A stretch of 37,974 nucleotides of DNA from a virus (taxonomy: Duplodnaviria > Heunggongvirae > Uroviricota > Caudoviricetes): IMG/VR virus record IMGVR_UViG_2548877011_000015. The stretch is one strand, 5' to 3'. This document shows, piece by piece, positions 1 to 37,687 of this stretch; position 1 is the first letter of the stretch; each line of letters opens with the position of its first letter. The position numbers were made by a program, and so were the translations under genes. The notes under the pieces are model-generated. The model was not told where the DNA came from. It did not search any database and was given only the letters and a program-made list of their open reading frames with translations.

Positions 1-1053
1 TTACGGGGTAATGCCAACCGCTGCCGCCACTTTGTCGCCACTTGGCAGCGTTGCCAGAGGATTGAAACGGAGCGCCGTTTCCAGATGATCCGGTGCCAGA
101 TGAGCGTAACGCATAGTCATTTTTATATCGTGATGTCCGAGGATTTTTTGCAAAGCAAGGATATTTCCACCCGACATCATGAAATGCGCCGCAAACGTAT
201 GGCGCAGAACGTGTGTCAGTTGACCGCGAGGGAGCACGATTGACGTTTTTTCCATCACGGATAAAAATTGAAAATAGCAGTCTGTGAAGAAATTGAACCC
301 ATCAAGCGCCATGATCTCTTCATAAAGCTCTTTACTGATAGGGATGCTTCTGTTTTTCTTCCCCTTCGTTCTTACAAAGGTAATTCGGTATTTAGTCACC
401 TGTGATCGGGTAAGGTTTATTGCTTCTCGCCAGCGTGCGCCTGTGCTTAAGCATATCTTGACTACCAGTGCCAGAATTGGGTCCTGACGTTTGCAATCAG
501 CCAGCAGTTCAACAATCTGCTCATGGGTAAGCCATGCCATCTCTTTTTCTGCGATGGTGAATTTTCGCATGTTCTCCAGTGGGTTTGGATACGACCATTC
601 GCCCAGGCGGGATAGTTCGCTAAAAACACTACTTAGATAGCTTTGCTCCAGGTTAATGGTGACCGGGCTTGCTCCTTTCTTCCATTTCTCGCTGAAGTAG
701 ATCTCACCTGTCAGGCGTTTATCTCGATAGTGGGCAAACATTTTAGAGGTGAGATCGGTTGCAAGGGGATTGCCCAGAGCGTCAACCATCAACAGCAATT
801 TATCATAGACATGCTGCCCAGCGGTTAGAGATTTACCATGTAGTTTGAACCATAGCTCAACCACGTCTTTCAGTGTTCGACGATCCACTGATTCTCCCAG
901 CCAGGGCTTTGCTTCGGTTTCTTCCATCGTATGGCGCTCAAAAGCCAGAGCTTCGCCTTTGGTGGCGAATTGTTTACGCACACGACGCCCACTACGTCCG
1001 GCGGGGTAACATTCGCAAAGCCATTTTCCTGTGGTGAGTTTTCGTACTGCCAT
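1..1053 (-). CDS. int: tyrosine integrase (P2/186 type)
   Basis: ORF track 1..1131; ATG at 1051-1053 gives MAVRKLTTGKW...; C-terminal half carries the typical tyrosine recombinase region (HVLRHTFAAHFMMSGGNILALQKILGHHDIKMTMRYAHL). Stop codon is at bases 1-3. Confidence 0.9.
   Translation of the reverse strand: MAVRKLTTGKWLCECYPAGRSGRRVRKQFATKGEALAFERHTMEETEAKPWLGESVDRRTLKDVVELWFKLHGKSLTAGQHVYDKLLLMVDALGNPLATDLTSKMFAHYRDKRLTGEIYFSEKWKKGASPVTINLEQSYLSSVFSELSRLGEWSYPNPLENMRKFTIAEKEMAWLTHEQIVELLADCKRQDPILALVVKICLSTGARWREAINLTRSQVTKYRITFVRTKGKKNRSIPISKELYEEIMALDGFNFFTDCYFQFLSVMEKTSIVLPRGQLTHVLRHTFAAHFMMSGGNILALQKILGHHDIKMTMRYAHLAPDHLETALRFNPLATLPSGDKVAAAVGITP
20..41. repeat. candidate attL core (direct repeat gctgccgccaCtttgtcgcca)
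   Basis: 21/22 identical to 35121..35142; lies inside the 3' end of int, as expected when the att core overlaps the integrase C-terminus. Confidence 0.5.
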
Positions 1054-1239
1054 AAAAAATGCCCTCCAATAGAGAGCATTTTTACTGTATGTATAACCAG
1101 TGTCAATGTATGAAATCCTGCGACCATACATCTCACTGAAGCCATAATGAAGTTGGCTATTTTTTGCTATGTGAGTATGTGACTTTTGCGGTTAGCCTGC
1201 GGCTCATTGTTATATTAGGCGCAGATATAAAAGCAAAAT

Positions 1240-1431
1240 TTATCGCGAGTTTTTAGTACAGATTTTTTTTGATTTACTAATAGTTCCATCATTGCAAACG
1301 AACTTTCCATCGGAGGTACAGTGAGAGACACCTCCCTTTTTCCCAGAACAAGGATAATTTTTAGCATAGGTAGTTAGTGGGTTTAATAACAAAGAGCATG
1401 ATAAAACCACAAAAAATACCTTACCAAGCAT
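1240..1431 (-). CDS. small secreted Cys-containing basic peptide (63 aa), likely moron
   Basis: ATG at 1429-1431 with strong GGAGG SD upstream; N-terminal signal-peptide-like segment [23 protein letters not shown] followed by 40-aa K-rich mature part with 4 Cys; local AT-rich composition. Confidence 0.5.
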
Positions 1432-1446
1432 AGTTTCCTCCCGGTA

Positions 1447-2016
1447 TTACCTAACGTACTTAATTGTTAAACTTATAATTTTCCCAATTATTTCAACATC
1501 TTCTATCTTGCACTCGAAGGCTCTGTTTCCACCTTCAACGAAGATTCTTCCACCGGGTAAACGAGTAATGTCGCGGATTGTTATTTCGCCATCAATACTT
1601 ATTACCCATTTACCGTCACGTATATCATCAAATTCTTTATCACAAATAAATTCAGAATTGTTATCTGTGATGACAAAAGGTTTTTTAAACGTAGAGGGTA
1701 GAAATCCCTTATCAAAAATATAAAAACCGTCTTCACGCAAGGCACCATCAGATAATACATATTTAGCAACTTCCATAGTATTTGTATTACCTGAAGTTTG
1801 CTTTGAACCATGTCCGGTTGTGAGCCAATTAAGCGAGGTGCCCGTTTCAAGGGCGCACTGGATTACCCATTCTGCTGGGAATGAGTCACGCATGTAGCGT
1901 GTGGCGAGTGTACTTTTAGAGATTCCTAAATGATCGCACAACGCCTGTCGAGTTTTGAATCCATAAGCTTCTACCATGCGCTCTATAGCGCCTCGTCCGC
2001 CTTTCTCCAAATTCAT
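1447..2016 (-). CDS. cI: CI-like immunity repressor (186 CI-like)
   Basis: ~190 aa, position and orientation between int and the apl/cII early operon; N-terminal HTH-like segment (TRQALCDHLGISKSTLATRYMRD). ATG at 2014-2016 preceded by GGAG; GTG at 2022 is an alternative start. Confidence 0.7.
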   Translation of the reverse strand: MNLEKGGRGAIERMVEAYGFKTRQALCDHLGISKSTLATRYMRDSFPAEWVIQCALETGTSLNWLTTGHGSKQTSGNTNTMEVAKYVLSDGALREDGFYIFDKGFLPSTFKKPFVITDNNSEFICDKEFDDIRDGKWVISIDGEITIRDITRLPGGRIFVEGGNRAFECKIEDVEIIGKIISLTIKYVR

Positions 2017-8149: not shown

Positions 8150-8338
8150 ATGCAGGACTATTTTTTGGAGTCTTTGAAGCTCCAGCGCATTGATTTTTTT
8201 CTTAAGCTTGTAGCGGCTAGTGAGTGTAGTGATGAAGAGAAGGGGCTGGCTCTGCAGTGGGTTTCTGAATTGACTGATGAACTCATGGCAAAAATCAGAA
8301 CCCACGAATACAACCGCTCAATGGATGTCATCAGCTGA
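8150..8338 (+). CDS. Tum-like SOS-inducible protein, N-terminal ORF (62 aa)
   Basis: ATG at 8150 with AGGAGGA SD; directly downstream of the LexA box, in the position of 186 tum. Confidence 0.45.
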   Translation: MQDYFLESLKLQRIDFFLKLVAASECSDEEKGLALQWVSELTDELMAKIRTHEYNRSMDVIS

Positions 8339-8348
8339 GGTGACTTTT

Positions 8349-8582
8349 ATGCGCATTGAAATAATGATCGATAAAGAGCAGAAGATTAGCCAGTCTACCC
8401 TGGACGCCCTTGAATCCGAGCTTTACCGCAATCTGCGCCCCCTGTATCCCAAAACGGTAATTCGTATCCGTAAAGGTAGCTCTAACGGTGTGGAACTGAC
8501 CGGACTGCAACTGGATGAAGAAAGAAAACAAGTGATGAAAATTATGCAGAAGGTGTGGGAAGACGACAGCTGGCTGCATTAA
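8349..8582 (+). CDS. DinI-family protein
   Basis: 77 aa MRIEIMIDKEQKISQSTLDALESELYRNLRPLYPKTVIRIRKGSSNGVELTGL...WEDDSWL is collinear with E. coli DinI (MRIEV...); GAGGTG SD upstream. Confidence 0.8.
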   Translation: MRIEIMIDKEQKISQSTLDALESELYRNLRPLYPKTVIRIRKGSSNGVELTGLQLDEERKQVMKIMQKVWEDDSWLH

Positions 8583-8590
8583 GAAACGTT

Positions 8591-8620
8591 GCCCCCAAGA
8601 GGATTTATCCTGTTGGGGGG
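8591..8620 (+). terminator. stem-loop after DinI-like gene (terminator candidate)
   Basis: gcccccaagaggat tt atcctgttggggg imperfect palindrome immediately after the stop, followed by a weak T stretch (agtttggg). Confidence 0.4.
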
Positions 8621-9070
8621 AGTTTGGGCAACGAGTGAAATGAGGTGTAAGGTGGGCGGTCATTTTGATAAGTGATCGTCCACTTTGTGTCAGAACCTGA
8701 TGTTTGTTGTACATTCGGACGAATAGGCGGCGTTGTTTGCTTTAAAAATAAAACAGGAACACTTTGAGAAAGTGAACAGGTGTATTTATTTGTTGCTGAT
8801 GAATGAGAGTAACTCTAATTTGGATAATTAGCTTGATAATAGGTCAGACGAAAATAATATTCCAGCACACTTTTGGTCGCAACAGGCATTAGTTAATTTT
8901 AAGTGATAAATTTTTATCCATAAATTAACACTAGTGTGTCATCTAGCGAAACCGAATCGCTTTAACTCATAACTTGAAGTTGAATCAGTGGGGTAGCAGT
9001 AGGCATGCCGGAACTGATAAACTGTGCAGAAGGCTAAACATTCATTCACTCGTGAGATAGTAGCTAAATT

Positions 9071-9937
9071 ATGCAAAGAATTATTCCTGATAAAAATTGG
9101 TGGGAAAAAGAGCGTATTAATCGTAAAGCATCATCAATATGCCCATATGCTAGTTCATACAGATGTCCTCGATACTATCAGAGTGTAGTTTTGCTCTCAA
9201 GCATCAATGTGATAGCTGGTATGGCAACTAGGAAAGAAAAAGAGTTGGGTGAATTTTGGGAAAGAACCACTTTCTCATCTTTATGTGATGAAGAAGTCCC
9301 TACAGTTACTACAAAAGAATATGGCGGCCTTGCATCAGTTAGTAATTTTTGCCCAGAAATATCATTTAGATATTTACACTACTACGCCGATTATATGTGT
9401 AAATATGTTGATGAGATAGATCAGGACACTGGCAGGCGTATTGCGGAAAAAGATAATTTAGAAAATGATTGGAAATATACATGGATGTCAGTCAATCCTA
9501 AATTTTATTTAGATTGCGATGTTTTTGAAAGTGTCAAAAATTTCAATGAAGAATTGGCTAGTGATTACTTAAAAAGATTGCACCCAAATATCGTTCAGCA
9601 AATAGATAGAATGAATAATTGCTTGGATAATAATGATCCGGCAGGTGCACTGCACGCAGCCTCTAATATTTTAGAAACTATGGCTAAGGAAATCACTCAA
9701 AACCCGAATGTGGCAAATGAGTCATTGGGTGGTTTTTTTAAACAGTTCGAAAAAATGTCAAAATTACCTAAGAATCTTATTGATGCTGTTAAAGATATTT
9801 ATGATTTACGCAACAAATTACCTACTGCTGGACACGGAAGCTTGAACAAGCCTGAATTGACTATGGTAGAAGCTATAACTATTGCGGCAATGACAAAGGC
9901 GATTTTAGAAATTGAATATCGAAGCAAAGCCATCTAA
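9071..9937 (+). CDS. hypothetical protein (288 aa), accessory island; possible Abi-like
   Basis: ATG at 9071; low-GC; N-terminal Cys cluster CPYASSYRCPRYY; C-terminal LRNKLPTAGHGS (R-N...G-H-G) reminiscent of Abi_C/HEPN-type motifs; occupies the P2 tin/old hotspot between the replication module and cos. Confidence 0.5.
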   Translation: MQRIIPDKNWWEKERINRKASSICPYASSYRCPRYYQSVVLLSSINVIAGMATRKEKELGEFWERTTFSSLCDEEVPTVTTKEYGGLASVSNFCPEISFRYLHYYADYMCKYVDEIDQDTGRRIAEKDNLENDWKYTWMSVNPKFYLDCDVFESVKNFNEELASDYLKRLHPNIVQQIDRMNNCLDNNDPAGALHAASNILETMAKEITQNPNVANESLGGFFKQFEKMSKLPKNLIDAVKDIYDLRNKLPTAGHGSLNKPELTMVEAITIAAMTKAILEIEYRSKAI

Positions 9938-10186: not shown

Positions 10187-10840
10187 TCATTTCGATGATT
10201 GATCCAGATGTGTATATAACCATTGAAAGAGTTTTCTAATTTTTGTGATAGTATCTTTTAAATAATTTAAGGAGATTATTATATTATTTTCATTGTTTAA
10301 TGAAAGAGTAGGTGTTTTATCAATGATATTTTTTAAGGCTACAGCTGTGCTCATTTTTTTAATGTCTCCATTAGCATGAACTATGCAATTCCTTACTTTG
10401 TTAAACTCTGTCATGAATTGCCACTCTTGTGACAGGCCAAAGTTTATATCCATTAATTTTGTTAAATATCTTTTTGCTTTGTGGATGCCATCACCATTAA
10501 AATCGGTTACTGATATATTGGTGTTTACAATCCTTTGACATATATTGCAATAGTCGTTTAGGTTGTGCTCTAAGCATGAGTATAAAGATACCAAAGCAGA
10601 TTTATTAAAAATATTTGGTTGTATGTTAACTAAGAAATCATATTGCTCTGAATAATAGTCTTCTAAGTAATTAATATAATCGTCAGGAGCATTCTTTTTT
10701 TCATCTTCATATGCTTTTTTTAATTCCGCTAAGTCAACTCTGTTTTGGCCGCCTGCTCCTAGGATATATTTTTCGAAATCATCAATCTGCGCTTCAAGTG
10801 AATATCTTGATAGCTGTGCGAAAAGTTTGTATTTACTCAT
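10187..10840 (-). CDS. hypothetical protein (217 aa) with HEPN-like Rx4H motif
   Basis: ATG at 10838-10840; low-GC; VRNCIVHANG matches the R-x4-H HEPN signature near the C-terminal third; accessory hotspot location. Confidence 0.5.
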   Translation of the reverse strand: MSKYKLFAQLSRYSLEAQIDDFEKYILGAGGQNRVDLAELKKAYEDEKKNAPDDYINYLEDYYSEQYDFLVNIQPNIFNKSALVSLYSCLEHNLNDYCNICQRIVNTNISVTDFNGDGIHKAKRYLTKLMDINFGLSQEWQFMTEFNKVRNCIVHANGDIKKMSTAVALKNIIDKTPTLSLNNENNIIISLNYLKDTITKIRKLFQWLYTHLDQSSK

Positions 10841-11270: not shown

Positions 11271-12920
11271 ATGTTAGTCAAGAAAAATAAAAATTATAGT
11301 TTATATTTTTTAATTACAAATAATCAACAGATATCTGATTCTGGTAATTATATAAAAATAGTCCCATCAAGAAGCGATTGGAATGATTTTGGATATTTGA
11401 GTAGAGTCGAAATATCTATTTTTAATAAAAAAGAGTGTAAGGATATAATTTCACTGAATGGTTATATTGGTTTTTTGAATTCAGAGGAGGAACGAAATGG
11501 AAAAGCAGAACTGATAAGGCGAGTGAAGAAAAAGGAAGAATCTAATTTAAAGGATGAGGGGTTTAATGATTATTTTGTCATGCTTCAGGATATGAATAAT
11601 TATCGAAGACTAGTAAGATTTTTTGGGGTGAATGAATCCAAATATATATTAAATTTCATTAATGATGTTGTTTCTAAGAAAAGTGACGCTAGTGCAGAGA
11701 ATTTGAGGAAAAAAGCAATCTCTTCTGATATCTTTAATAAATCTTTCATTAGAGAGTCTGAGTCGTATTTTACTTTCAAAAATGCAGGAACAGTTCTTTC
11801 CGGTATTCAATATGAGGAGTTGGGTAATTTATCACAGCACATCAAGATTAGCTATTCGAATAAAGTTAATGAAGAAGATGTATCTTATGTTTTTAATTTT
11901 GATCACGAGCATGATTTACCAAAAAGAATTTCCATAATTATAGGCGAGAATGGTGTAGGAAAAAGCCAAACGCTTAGAGAAATCGCATTGGCTGCGATTA
12001 AAGGAAAGGATAATTTGGTGGCTGTAGTTGATTCTAACGGTGTGAGCATTGAAGAACGAATTCAAATTAGTAGGCTCATTGCTTTTTCTCCAACAAATGA
12101 AAGTAAGTGTTCATTTCCAACCGATAAAAGAATAAAATCATTGATATGGTACAAAAGATTGACTTTAAATCGTGAATCAAAATCCAAATTAAACTTGAAT
12201 GATTTAATAGTGCAACTAGCGAGGAGTAACGACGCTATCGGCTATAATCAAAGGTGGAATATATTTGTTGATGCACTGAGTGTTCTAAATAGTAACAACG
12301 ATTTAGTAATCAAATGTAGCGGTGAAAATTCACCATTTGTTAAATTAAATGAGCTTAATTCTCGAGGCGAAGAATCCAGACTATCATTATATTCTGAAAT
12401 TATTCTCTCTGGCGAGCCTTTGAGGCTTGTTGAAAATAAATGTTACCCTTTGAGTAGTGGGGAAATATCGTTTATTAAGTTTTGTGTACAAGTCTGTTTG
12501 TATATTGAGAATGGGACTCTTCTATTAATAGATGAGCCAGAAACACATCTCCATCCTTCATTTATTAATAAATTTATGGCATTGCTTGATAATTTATTAG
12601 AAAAGACAGGCTCTTCAGCTATCATAGCAACGCATTCGGTTTATCTTGTTCGGGAGGTTTTTAAGGAGCAAGTGACAATACTCAGAAGACGAGATGATGG
12701 GGTAATTGTTAGCGAAAAACCGAGATTGAGTACTTTTGGGGCGAATATAGGAAATATCTCATATTTTGTTTTCGGTGAGAGTGAACCAACTCAAATTTTA
12801 AATAAAGTAAAAAATAATATAATTGCAAAGAATATGTCTTGGGATGATGTTGAATCTAAATATAGCGAGGACTTATCACTTAATGTATTAACTGCGTTGA
12901 GAAATGAAATAGGTAATTGA
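11271..12920 (+). CDS. ABC/SMC-like ATPase with N-terminal extension (Septu PtuA-like)
   Basis: 549 aa; Walker A GENGVGKS (~aa 225), Walker B LLLIDEPETHLHP (~aa 417), H-loop ATHS; ~215-aa N-terminal domain of unknown type; GAGGGT SD; low-GC; stop is 1 nt before the next gene's start. Confidence 0.7.
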   Translation: MLVKKNKNYSLYFLITNNQQISDSGNYIKIVPSRSDWNDFGYLSRVEISIFNKKECKDIISLNGYIGFLNSEEERNGKAELIRRVKKKEESNLKDEGFNDYFVMLQDMNNYRRLVRFFGVNESKYILNFINDVVSKKSDASAENLRKKAISSDIFNKSFIRESESYFTFKNAGTVLSGIQYEELGNLSQHIKISYSNKVNEEDVSYVFNFDHEHDLPKRISIIIGENGVGKSQTLREIALAAIKGKDNLVAVVDSNGVSIEERIQISRLIAFSPTNESKCSFPTDKRIKSLIWYKRLTLNRESKSKLNLNDLIVQLARSNDAIGYNQRWNIFVDALSVLNSNNDLVIKCSGENSPFVKLNELNSRGEESRLSLYSEIILSGEPLRLVENKCYPLSSGEISFIKFCVQVCLYIENGTLLLIDEPETHLHPSFINKFMALLDNLLEKTGSSAIIATHSVYLVREVFKEQVTILRRRDDGVIVSEKPRLSTFGANIGNISYFVFGESEPTQILNKVKNNIIAKNMSWDDVESKYSEDLSLNVLTALRNEIGN

Positions 12921-12921
12921 A

Positions 12922-13785
12922 ATGAATAAATTAAAAAGACCTGTTTTTAAAGATTATTCTGCATTTAAAAAACTATCTGCAAATAAGAGATTAAAACATC
13001 ATTCTGTTCTGAATGGACAGGATACATTTATACTTAATGCATATAGATCGTACATAAAGAATAAAGGATATCTTAATGTCAATTCTTGTGGCGTATTGAG
13101 TAACAATATTGCTGAAGCTTTGAAATATTATTATAACAATCCCGCAAAGTGTTTATCTATAATTGATGATATAAGAGCAGCTAATTCTAACTCTCTATGT
13201 CCAATGTGTGGTTCAATGCATAGCGGGACTTTGGATCATGTTTTACCCAAGGAAAACTATCCAGAATTTTCTTTATTCACTAAGAATTTGGTTCCTGCTT
13301 GCAAATGTAATACTTTCAAAAGTACTACTATAGCTAATTCTGCAGGCCATCGGATGCTGCATCCATATTTTGATAATATATTAAAACAAAGATTAATATG
13401 TGCTAATTTTTCTAAATTAGGGCGAACACCTACAATTGATGTAAAAATCATAATTGACCCAATGTCACCAGAATATAACAATGTTAAGTATCATCTTGAT
13501 AATGTTGTTATCAAGAATAATATTAAGGGGTATTTGTCTGAACAATGGGAGTCGTTTTACTTATATCCTGAGCTTGTTATTAGAGGACTGAATAAGAGTC
13601 TTTCTACTTATAGCGATGTATATGAGTTGTTGACTCGCGAGTTGTTGCTGTTGGATGAAAAACATAAAGGTAAAAATAATTGGAATTCGGTTTTTGTAGC
13701 TGGGTTAATTCGACCTGATGTGATTAGGTGGATACTCTGTGAATTACATTTAGGTAACAGAAGTCCAGACGGTCGTCTCATATGA
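12922..13785 (+). CDS. HNH endonuclease (Septu PtuB-like)
   Basis: 287 aa; HNH core CPMCGSMHSGTLDHVLPKENYPEF...NLVPACKCN; tightly coupled to the upstream ATPase. Confidence 0.7.
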   Translation: MNKLKRPVFKDYSAFKKLSANKRLKHHSVLNGQDTFILNAYRSYIKNKGYLNVNSCGVLSNNIAEALKYYYNNPAKCLSIIDDIRAANSNSLCPMCGSMHSGTLDHVLPKENYPEFSLFTKNLVPACKCNTFKSTTIANSAGHRMLHPYFDNILKQRLICANFSKLGRTPTIDVKIIIDPMSPEYNNVKYHLDNVVIKNNIKGYLSEQWESFYLYPELVIRGLNKSLSTYSDVYELLTRELLLLDEKHKGKNNWNSVFVAGLIRPDVIRWILCELHLGNRSPDGRLI

Positions 13786-35354: not shown

Positions 35355-37040
35355 TTATCCTAATCCTGGCCATACCATGACGATGATTGTCCCTGCCAGC
35401 GTCAGCAGGACGTTGGCGATTGCGTAGGTGCCCGCATAGCCCAGCGCAGGGATGTTACTGCGAGCTGTATCACTGATGATCTCCATTGCCGGCGCGCAGG
35501 TGCGTGCGCCCATCATTGCGCCGAACAACAGTGCGCGGTTCATTCGCAATACATAAGCACCGAACAAGAAACAGATAACCACGGGCACAAGACTGACAAT
35601 TAATCCGGCAATCAACATCTGACCGCCAATCGCGCCCAGGCCGTTATTAATACCGCTACCGGCGCTCAGACCAACGCCTGCCATAAACACCATCAAGCCG
35701 AACTCTTTCACCATGCTTAATGCACCTTGCGGAATGTAACCGAAGGTCGGGTGGTTAGCACGCATAAAGCCCAGCATAATTCCGGCGAATAACAACCCGG
35801 CAGCGTTCCCCATGCCGAAACTGAATGTGCTGAACTGGAAGGTGATCATCCCGATCATCAGCCCAATAACAAAGAAGGCGCAAAATGCCAGCAGGTCAGT
35901 GACCTGGCTGTGAATCGAGATAAAGCCGATGCGATCGGCGATGGTTTTTACGCGACGGGCATCACCGCTGACTTGTAAAACGTCACCTTTGTTAAGCACG
36001 ACGTTGTCATCTATCGGCATCTCAATCTGGCTACGAATGACGCGGTTAAGGAAGCAACCGTGATCGGTCAACTTCAGTTGTGCGAGACGTTTACCTACAG
36101 CGTTATGGTTTTTAACGACCACTTCTTCAGTGACGATACGCATGTCGAGAAGGTCACGATCGAAAACTTCTTTACCGTTACGGAAGCTGGGATCGAGTCG
36201 GGCATGGGCGTCGGGATAGCCTACCAACGCTATTTCATCGCCCATTTGTAGCACGGCATCACCGTCTGGATTTGCCAGAATCCCGTTACGTCGAATACGT
36301 TCAATGTAGCAGCCGGTTTGTCGATAAATACCCAGTTCACGCAGATTTTTGCCGTCGGTCCAGGCCACCAGCTCCGGGCCGACGCGATAGGCGCGGATCA
36401 CCGGTAAATAAACCTTACGGTTGGCATCAGTGTCCAGGCCACGTTCGCGGGCGATTTGCTGGGCGCTGGTCTGTAAGTCCTGATGCTGCAATTTCGGCAA
36501 GTAACGCGCACCAACAATCAAACTCACCAGACCGATTAAATAGGTTAAGGCATATCCGAGGCTCAGATTATCCAGTGCCAGTGAGAGCTGCCTGCTTTCC
36601 ATACCGGAATGACGCAGTGTATCGCCAGCACCGACCAGAACCGGTGTCGACGTCATAGAGCCTGCTAACATACCGGCCGTCAGGCCAATATCCCAGCCAA
36701 ACAGCTTACCTAACCCTAAGGCGATCACCAGCGCACTGCCAACCATCACCAGTGCTAACATTAGGTAATTTTTCCCATCGCGAAAAAAAATGGAAAAAAA
36801 GTTCGGTCCGGCTTCGACCCCGACGCAGAAAATAAACAGCATAAAGCCAAGATTAAGCGCATCGGTGTTAATGCTGAAATGTTGTTGGCCTAATAACAGC
36901 GATACGACTAAAACGCCAATGGAATTACCCAGTTGGATCGAACCAAGTCGTAACTTTCCGAGACATAGCCCAAGCGCGAGGACCACAAATAATAACAGAA
37001 TGTAATTCCCATTTAACAATTCGGCGACGTTTATATTCAC
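35355..37040 (-). CDS. ybjL: AAE-family putative transporter YbjL (host)
   Basis: 561-aa multi-pass membrane protein; N-terminus [33 protein letters not shown] recognised as E. coli YbjL; normal host GC content. Confidence 0.8.
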
Positions 37041-37309
37041 GGAGGCTAACTTCTTGTTTACTAGTAAGCTGTTGAAAGAAATGGTAATTTACGATAATGT
37101 TTTTTACCAGAATTCAGGGCGCAGATTCATTCAGCGCACCTAAACGATAGTAAAGTAACAATATATTTTACTAGTGTAATCACATTAGGTATCAACGGCT
37201 ATATGAATTGCGTTGGCCTATATTAGCATGGAATGCGAAGCGGCTTTATCTTACTGAACGCCACACTGGCGAAAAATGTGTTCGATAGACGCAGTGTCAG
37301 GAGGAACGA

Positions 37310-37687
37310 GTGAAACATAAACAACGTTGGGCGGGGGCAATCTGCTGTTTTGTCCTCTTCATTGTGGTGTGCCTTTTTCTGGCGACGCACATGAAAGGCG
37401 CTTTTCGGGCTGCCGGGCATCCTGAAATCGGCTTGCTGTTTTTCATTCTTCCTGGAGCAGTTGCCAGTTTCTTTTCACAGCGTAGAGAAGTCCTGAAACC
37501 TCTATTTGGCGCAATGCTGGCGGCACCCTGTTCAATGCTTATTATGCGGCTGTTTTTTTCACCGACCCGCTCATTCTGGCAAGAGCTGGCATGGTTACTA
37601 AGCGCGGTGTTCTGGTGTGCGCTGGGGGCACTGTGTTTCTTATTTATCAGTAGTTTGTTTAAACCACAGCACAGAAAAAATCAGTAA
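37310..37687 (+). CDS. ybjM: inner membrane protein YbjM (host)
   Basis: 125-aa membrane protein with GTG start at 37310; position between ybjL and grxA as in E. coli. Confidence 0.7.
   Translation: MKHKQRWAGAICCFVLFIVVCLFLATHMKGAFRAAGHPEIGLLFFILPGAVASFFSQRREVLKPLFGAMLAAPCSMLIMRLFFSPTRSFWQELAWLLSAVFWCALGALCFLFISSLFKPQHRKNQ

Follow-up and report, generated by a model that had tools for sequence, protein, structure and literature searches.

A YdcA-family gene for a predicted periplasmic peptide between the repressor and integrase genes of a 186-like prophage, and a possible connection of its domain with DNA

Introduction

What does a prophage carry in the short AT-rich interval between its immunity repressor and its integrase, and what could the product do for the lysogen? 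The question is raised by the IMG/VR virus record IMGVR_UViG_2548877011_000015, a 37,974-nucleotide (nt) stretch holding a 186-like E. coli prophage and referred to here, in its whole length, as the window, in which an open reading frame (ORF) of 63 codons separates the integrase gene (int) from the gene of the CI repressor. An initial annotation, made from the sequence without database searches, regarded its product as a candidate lysogenic-conversion factor, secreted toxin or bacteriocin-like peptide. We have little doubt about the descriptive part of the answer, namely that the ORF is a real cargo gene of the YdcA family in the cI-int operon, that its product is directed to the periplasm, and that it is not a bacteriocin. 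Its domain recurs in fusions with secreted nucleases of unrelated folds and in genes adjoining theirs, and we propose that it may bind DNA; the statement as a whole, with this mechanism included, is a tentative one.

The gene and its predicted product

The ORF begins with ATG and occupies positions 1240..1431 of the window on the minus strand (stop codon 1240-1242), as given by the ORF listing and translation, by family models and by RefSeq. Between the stop codon of cI (TAA, 1449..1447) and the ATG there are 15 nt (1432..1446, minus strand), the coding strand reading TAA-TACCGGGAGGAAACT-ATG, and this spacer contains the Shine-Dalgarno sequence GGGAGGA (1442..1436), which ends 5 nt ahead of the start codon. 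The 63-amino-acid (aa) ORF with a strong Shine-Dalgarno sequence described by the initial annotation is thus confirmed; the span given to it there, 1140-1446, does hold the ORF, and in addition takes in about 100 nt of non-coding DNA downstream and the 15-nt spacer. Its description as lying in an AT-rich pocket between integrase and repressor also stands, the G+C content of the ORF being 35%, that of positions 1132-1446 37% and that of the whole window 50%. Two other ORFs that overlap it, of 50 aa (1215-1367, minus strand) and 30 aa (1164-1256, plus strand), were considered and were without support.

The N-terminus, noted earlier as resembling a signal peptide, consists of one Lys, a hydrophobic core (Kyte-Doolittle 9-residue means of 1.9-2.7 across residues 1-17) and the residues T-Y-A at positions -3 to -1. 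It is predicted to be a Sec-type signal peptide (residues 1-23; 1363..1431, minus strand) that would be cut by signal peptidase I after Ala23, between TYA and K. The call is heuristic, hydropathy and the -3/-1 rule having been read by hand, and it is backed by the layout of the family: the Ala at -1 is invariant, and an N-terminal hydrophobic segment precedes the domain in 214 of 223 family proteins, the domain starting at a median residue of 24. An alternative reading of the leader as that of a lipoprotein, with Cys12 following V-L-S, is unlikely, since homologues do not keep Cys12 and this reading would leave the mature protein with a hydrophobic N-terminus.

The mature part (40 aa; 1243..1362, minus strand) corresponds to the YdcA domain, as delimited by invariant columns, substitution pattern and an AlphaFold2 model. 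It contains 8 Lys, 1 Arg, 2 Asp and 4 Cys with an isoelectric point (pI) of 9.6, which bears out the Lys-rich, four-Cys mature region of the initial annotation, and its Cys spacing is C-x9-C-x7-C-x11-C. AlphaFold2 models a small hairpin with strands at residues 35-38 and 44-46, with a predicted local distance difference test (pLDDT) score of approximately 90 over residues 31-55. The four Cys probably form two disulfides, as suggested by the periplasmic location and by the likeness to the Legionella protein Dis2 discussed below.

A catalogued family under strong purifying selection

A search of family databases showed that gene and family are already known in database terms. The protein scores 116.1 bits against the NCBIfam model NF007463 (PRK10040.1-2; cut-off 93) and 117 bits, in an end-to-end match, against phrog_6000; RefSeq holds it at identical coordinates as WP_001321204.1, under the names 'YdcA family protein' or 'hypothetical protein', and the Pfam family PF27300 'YdcA' is precomputed on its close homologues. 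The Pfam membership rests on this precomputed annotation of homologues, the family being newer than the Pfam copy that we used. The UniRef name of its cluster is 'Conjugal transfer protein'. Two weak matches of the window protein were set aside as noise: one to the Pfam family GULLO2-like (E 0.068), and one to the NCBIfam model lpg1681_fam (E 0.11), which is far under its cut-off and lies mostly over the hydrophobic leader; lpg1681 itself is a protein with two transmembrane segments that has been linked to DsbD2 (PMC6598767). None of the families in PADLOC-DB matched the peptide at E <= 0.01. Full-text literature searches on the YdcA family returned incidental mentions only.

Purifying selection on the mature peptide is very strong. 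Compared with its counterpart in a second 186-like prophage of Escherichia (GCA_009820975.1, referred to as L007), whose cI-ydcA DNA is only 70% identical to that of the window, the mature part shows 18 synonymous differences (a proportion, pS, of 0.77, which is saturated) and three non-synonymous ones (pN 0.033), hence a pN/pS of approximately 0.04, while pN in the signal peptide reaches 0.49. In an alignment spanning Enterobacterales to Moraxella, Herbaspirillum and metagenomic betaproteobacteria, the Ala at -1 and Pro27, Cys28, Ser29, Lys32, Gly33, Gly34, Cys38, Phe44, Cys46, Gly49, Ser52, Ser54, Lys55 and Cys58 are invariant, whereas the leader outside the -1 Ala varies freely. The initial annotation had named the Cys pattern of homologues as a point on which its reading could fail, and the pattern holds: all four Cys of the mature part are invariant, and the spacing C-x9-C-x6/7-C-x11-C is kept in 213 of the 231 domains retrieved, which have a mean net charge of +4. 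The window protein also carries the family motifs PCSGxKGG and FxCxDGxxSxSK.

An exhaustive profile search collected 441 clusters (50% identity) at E <= 1e-3, and a scan of one genome per species found the family in Alpha-, Beta- and Gammaproteobacteria. In many betaproteobacterial members (P0056, P0057, P0060-P0062, P0121, P0149, P0160 and P0112) an additional small Cys motif, 'C.C....C[TA]GPRGG.[YF]C....G.K.Y', was seen at the C-terminal end, and the 'CTGPRGGxYC' tails of longer homologues gave weak matches to PBCV_basic_adap (E 1e-4 to 0.013).

The chromosomal YdcA of E. coli K-12 (b1419) is a 57-aa putative periplasmic protein that belongs to PF27300 and to the equivalog model NF007462 (PRK10040.1-1). 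Like the prophage protein, it consists of a signal peptide and one domain of approximately 36 aa, with identical Cys spacing and the shared motifs PCSG(S/K)KGG(I/V)SHC...GKFVCNDG(S/T)IS(A/K)SKK(T/I)C. The prophage protein differs in its leader and in its more Lys-rich domain, and it scores 68 bits against NF007462 (cut-off 118), passing the sister model NF007463 instead. Because it fails the K-12 model, and because it is located between cI and int rather than at the chromosomal locus, where ydcA adjoins cybB and trg with no partner gene (cybB-ydcA-trg; strain N96), the prophage gene is, by sequence and position, a paralogue and not an orthologue of chromosomal ydcA.

The identical protein is recorded on at least 1000 contigs, and its DNA was detected at >=90% identity in 632 of 5426 complete E. 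coli genomes (approximately 12%), carriers including ATCC 8739, APEC O78 and the B lineage (BL21-AI, ATCC 11303, BAP1). In BL21-AI (L017; NZ_CP047231.1 842313-848504; ydcA-like tag GSU80_RS04100) the copy sits in a defective prophage next to rcdA/ybjJ, in which cII and the replication-endonuclease gene are truncated, but cI, int and the ydcA-like gene, whose protein is identical, remain intact. A megablast search with the region as query matched none of 50,697 phage records, and phage homologues surfaced only by tblastn. A scan of viral contigs returned 484 relatives; the 80 loci kept from it were all near-identical copies of the window prophage and so carry no information on diversity.

A cargo slot in the lysogenic operon

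Directly upstream of the ORF lies the gene of a 186-type CI repressor (1447..2016, 570 nt, minus strand; Phage_CI_repr 2.8e-33, Phage_CI_C 2e-28; RefSeq). Downstream, beyond a non-coding spacer (1054..1239, minus strand), follows that of a P2/186-type integrase (1..1053 with the RefSeq start, minus strand; Int_N 3.2e-32, Phage_integrase 1.2e-21). A scan on consensus matches found no terminator-like site on the minus strand from the ORF to int. The gene lies on what would be the cI-to-int transcript, and the earlier suggestion that its position allows expression in the lysogen is therefore retained. We strongly infer co-transcription with cI in the lysogen from the 15-nt gap, the result of the terminator scan, the arrangement in the model Haemophilus phage HP2 (see below) and the precedent of phage 186, where an int::lacZ fusion serves as a read-out of leftward transcription (PMC7708051). 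A promoter-like match, TTGACA-17-AAAAAT (1106..1078, minus strand), was noted in the spacer 25 nt ahead of the int start; it is a consensus match only, falls within the segment that accompanies int in other phages, and may be an int-proximal promoter.

In comparison with relatives, the ORF looks like acquired cargo in a slot like that of a 'moron', being variable among related phages and deviant in G+C content. The own promoter and terminator of a classical moron were not found, the 15-nt gap being too short for a promoter and the minus strand downstream having no terminator-like site. The spacer is mosaic, with junctions at approximately 1112 and 1142: the int module is shared up to approximately 1112 with Klebsiella phage 4LV2017 (97% identity) and ESSI2_ev129 (74%), and up to 1142 with L007 (93%), beyond which the sequences diverge. 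Between cI and int, ESSI2_ev129 has no gene, the two being 77 nt apart; 4LV2017 has an unrelated 349-aa gene; and prophages of the L007 type have the ydcA-like gene, followed by that of a KAP-family nucleoside triphosphatase (NTPase) and then int. The gene is thus missing from one relative and is replaced or joined by other cargo in others, and to this extent the initial reading is supported. The 443-aa KAP NTPase of L007 (5198..6529) matches the PADLOC candidate defence model PDC-S20 with 570 bits, and its gene (1335 nt) exactly replaces window positions 1143-1247, which indicates that the DNA 3' of ydcA is itself an insertion point for defence-type cargo.

The same coupling is seen at a distance. 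Among 80 species loci from the one-genome-per-species scan, to which the neighbour counts given here refer, the commonest upstream neighbour of the family gene is a 186-type CI repressor (9 of 80; Escherichia, Buttiauxella, Yersinia and Pasteurellaceae), and the commonest downstream neighbour is an integrase. Haemophilus phages HP2 and S2 contain a 60-aa homologue (L002, 2920..3102) which is absent from the annotation of their GenBank records. As in the window, the phage is P2-like, and within the pL operon the gene directly follows a 186-type cI and precedes int, its mature-region DNA being 75% identical to that of the window gene. It differs in that its ATG overlaps the cI stop codon (TAATG), downstream of the annotated pL promoter, and in that an additional secreted cargo gene follows: after 9 nt comes orf1(S), encoding a secreted tRNA_anti-like protein of the oligonucleotide/oligosaccharide-binding fold, and then int.

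Elsewhere, too, the gene travels as cargo, in other settings. In the Moraxella Mcat phages the gene is located between the tail chaperone and tape-measure genes, beside Bro-N genes, and it is also found on plasmids of Acinetobacter and Rhizobium. The small Psychrobacter plasmid pA40P1 (L013, 5371 bp) is of a mobilisable type, with RepB, MobA and little else, and its sole cargo is a same-strand block of genes for a 150-aa lipoprotein, a 57-aa YdcA-like protein and a 319-aa protein without Pfam match. We considered whether the family could be a component of type IV secretion systems (T4SS) and rejected this, as the neighbours on the Acinetobacter plasmid p3ABAYE and the Psychrobacter plasmid are hypothetical, toxin-antitoxin and Bro genes and not tra genes; T4SS families were also absent from the commonest neighbours of family genes. 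Many hosts of YdcA-bearing phages belong to Haemophilus, Moraxella and Acinetobacter, genera known for natural competence.

Association with secreted nucleases

When 25 longer members of the family were analysed with Pfam, Endonuclease_NS was found in three of them and SNase, PLDc_2 and Endonuclea_NS_2 in one each, with the same layout in every case: signal peptide, YdcA domain, low-complexity linker, enzyme. Two further fragments of Endonuclease_NS fusions were recovered by BLAST. The fusions listed comprise those with SNase (P0091; L173, 2956..3708), with Endonuclease_NS (P0159, P0141, P0175, P0203 and P0132) and with PLDc_2 (P0161). A possible HNH fusion (P0212) fell short of the cut-off with an E of 0.009 and was not counted. 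In addition, a separate gene for a secreted SNase adjoins the ydcA-like gene on the same strand at five of the 80 species loci (L157, L164, L172, L120 and L122), in both gene orders and in at least four unrelated arrangements; by a rough estimate, which is not a computed value, far fewer than one SNase gene would be expected by chance over 80 stretches of 6 kb. As one small domain accompanies three unrelated nuclease folds, what it has in common with these enzymes is more readily a substrate or a location than a fold-specific partner.

Probable kinship with Dis2

The top match of the family profile in the PDB was Dis2 of the Legionella Dot/Icm system (7muc_AN; E 3e-4), and it was still the top match after removal of the leader (E 0.015). 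The domain-only profile also draws LDL-receptor class A repeats and lysozyme (E 0.03-0.3), which we take as compositional noise of Cys-rich sequences and which limits the weight of the Dis2 match. Dis2 was likewise ranked first when the AlphaFold2 model was searched with Foldseek (probability 0.97, 39% identity over 38 columns, E 0.1), an hhalign comparison of the family with Dis2 returned a probability of 74%, and a faint PF27300 match was seen on a Dis2 homologue. From these comparisons, homology of the YdcA domain to Dis2 is probable, and Dis2 would then be its one relative of solved structure. In both, a small disulfide-rich domain comes after a signal peptide and carries the pattern C-S-K-x-GG-[IV]-x-x-C...G-[KR]-[FL]-V-C-N-[DN]-G-x-x-S. 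They differ in that Dis2 is built of two tandem lobes pinned by five disulfides (PMC8486379), the window protein being a single domain with four Cys, and in that Dis2 is part of a type IVB secretion system, whereas the large ORFs of the window, a prophage, include no T4SS genes. Five family members (P0065, P0066, P0067, P0068 and P0069) contain two or three YdcA domains in tandem, joined by low-complexity linkers, an arrangement that recalls the two-lobed Dis2.

Proposed function and competing explanations

We propose that this cargo gene of a 186-like prophage would be read from the leftward lysogenic transcript straight after cI, so that its product would be made continuously in the lysogen. 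The 63-aa precursor would be exported by Sec and cut after Ala23, and the 40-aa mature peptide would fold in the periplasm as a small beta-hairpin domain, probably with two disulfides. More speculatively, the strongly basic domain would be a binding module for an anionic polymer of the envelope space, most probably DNA. This is put forward because the YdcA domain is repeatedly fused to, or encoded beside, secreted nucleases of unrelated folds, and the binding of a polyanion is preferred because the domain is exported, basic, rich in Gly/Ser/Lys loops and tethered to DNA-degrading enzymes. The free prophage copy would then sequester or mark periplasmic DNA, or modulate periplasmic nucleases, and the handling by the lysogen of DNA in the periplasm, such as incoming foreign or transforming DNA, might change. 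A precedent of a kind is provided by nucleases that mobile elements export and that block natural transformation, namely Dns of CJIE1, CJE0566/CJE1441, IdeA and SxnA (PMC12378983). These are likewise exported, DNA-directed functions encoded by prophages or integrative and conjugative elements and expressed in the carrier cell, and some YdcA-family members form the N-terminal module of nucleases of those classes (Endonuclease_NS, SNase). They differ in being catalytic; the window protein is without a catalytic domain, and any effect of it on DNA uptake is hypothetical. A second precedent is the neighbouring orf1(S) of HP2, whose secreted product has the OB fold. A further extension, which we consider doubtful, would make YdcA an extracytoplasmic nucleic-acid-binding module, of which the free phage copy, translationally coupled to the repressor, guards the prophage against incoming DNA and Dis2 is a duplicated and divergent member; a periplasmic DNA-binding peptide in every lysogen would then interfere with transformation, superinfection or conjugation.

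Several observations weigh against this proposal. DNA binding by the family is speculative, and expression in the lysogen is read from the gene arrangement only. The nuclease fusions may reflect only approximately five independent events, and the majority of the family, with a median length of 84 aa, consists of stand-alone proteins with unrelated neighbours. Anchoring, a pro-domain role or inhibition would account equally well for a small domain fused or adjacent to a nuclease. Dis2, the probable structural relative, is not basic, and as a subunit beneath the outer membrane it makes contact with proteins (PMC8486379, PMC12716638). The phages of Moraxella and Acinetobacter have the gene among tail genes and not beside the repressor, natural transformation in its usual sense does not occur in E. 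coli, and the only phenotypes reported for its ydcA are those under acid and organic-acid stress (PMC7642389).

These last phenotypes suggest another conversion factor, one that would supply an extra, constitutive dose of YdcA function against acid or organic-acid stress. In E. coli W the ydcA deletion mutant grows normally when unstressed and is severely inhibited by 300 mM 3-hydroxypropionate, and ydcA has been described as acid-induced through YdcI (PMC7642389); the prophage protein shares the domain and its invariant residues with chromosomal YdcA, and many members of the family are chromosomal and stand-alone. The phenotype, however, comes from one study and one stress and is fully suppressed by deletion of yieP (PMC7642389), no molecular mechanism is attached to it, and it explains neither the nuclease fusions nor the retention of the gene beside cI in distant P2-like phages. 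The prophage protein, moreover, fails the K-12 equivalog model (68 bits against 118), and we consider a stress function unlikely. Much the same estimate applies to a protein-binding adaptor under the outer membrane, which, like one lobe of Dis2, would dock lipoproteins, secretins or another envelope machine and could in the lysogen block a receptor or phage entry (superinfection exclusion) or alter a secretion or pilus system. The profile, Foldseek and hhalign results and the faint PF27300 match on a Dis2 homologue argue for it, as do the contacts of Dis2 with DotK, DotC and DotD beneath the outer membrane (PMC12716638), the UniRef name and the position in the lysogenic operon, which suits an exclusion function; the separation of the family from T4SS genes and the nuclease data point elsewhere. 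Small partners encoded beside secreted nucleases are often inhibitors, for instance NuiA for NucA, and the fusion and neighbourhood data apply equally well to an inhibitor or pro-domain, the free phage copy of which would inhibit a host periplasmic nuclease such as EndA. Known nuclease inhibitors are nevertheless fold-specific, and here at least three unrelated nuclease folds are involved; N-terminal modules held on a linker are more often binding or targeting domains, and a prophage would have no obvious benefit, all of which makes inhibition improbable.

The toxin, bacteriocin or antimicrobial peptide considered in the initial annotation, which would kill competitors or damage host cells, finds no support and is highly improbable. 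Small size, a cationic character (pI 9.6) and four Cys are common to many antimicrobial peptides, and the gene is carried by phages and plasmids. Yet the precursor has only a Sec leader, which delivers to the periplasm, and neither a double-glycine leader nor an ATP-binding cassette (ABC) exporter, lysis or immunity gene accompanies it; its direct flanks are cI and int, and no export, immunity or lysis genes are found beside homologues. The mature part is neither amphipathic nor hydrophobic (Kyte-Doolittle means of about -1.9 to +0.6). E. coli has a chromosomal paralogue without immunity partner, the deletion of which is harmless to unstressed cells, and the domain is used as a module of multi-domain enzymes and probably also as a subunit of a secretion machine. 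Bacteriocin-immunity pairs typically diversify rapidly, and the YdcA domain, unlike bacteriocins, is near-invariant across Alpha-, Beta- and Gammaproteobacteria. That the ORF is spurious, or a regulatory spacer without protein product, has only its small size and AT-rich setting in its favour and can practically be dismissed in view of profile scores over curated cut-offs, the 441 clusters, a pN/pS of approximately 0.04 and the strong ribosome-binding site.

Significance

In the literature searched, four points appear not to have been described: the consistent coupling of a YdcA gene to cI in phages of the P2, 186 and HP1 types, the missing annotation of the YdcA homologue in HP2 and S2, the association of YdcA with secreted nucleases, and the probable kinship of YdcA with Dis2. 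The gene would be expressed alongside the immunity repressor in approximately 12% of complete E. coli genomes, among them those of the B/BL21 lineage and of ATCC 8739. As BL21 and ATCC 8739 are standard strains, the peptide can be approached by experiment. That its 36 residues are so extremely conserved in Alpha-, Beta- and Gammaproteobacteria, in phages and on plasmids implies that their target is conserved as well. If the association with nucleases does reflect DNA binding, the domain would represent a new periplasmic DNA-handling module and a new form of prophage control over DNA entry, and would for the first time open a way into the function of E. coli YdcA and of Dis2; otherwise the gene is one more small conserved cargo gene. 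Dis2, so far called Legionella-specific, would as kin become a member of a widespread domain family.

Other features of the window

A two-gene block on the plus strand (11271..13785) was noted in the cargo region between the replication and portal genes. It encodes a 549-aa AAA_21 ATPase, PtuA-like, with a PADLOC match to PDC-M01A (186 bits), and a 287-aa partner matching PDC-M01B (115 bits), and is, from these matches, a candidate anti-phage defence system in a classical P2 hotspot. Three other cargo ORFs have no Pfam match (8331-8714, minus strand; 9071-9937, plus strand; 10187-10840, minus strand), the last of them having a weak PADLOC match to RTasHEPN (E 1e-5). Past the end of the prophage, the host flank (35355..37687) contains a ybjL-like gene for an Asp-Al_Ex/TrkA_C permease on the minus strand and ybjM on the plus strand, a gene content consistent with the rcdA/ybj integration region of BL21-AI.

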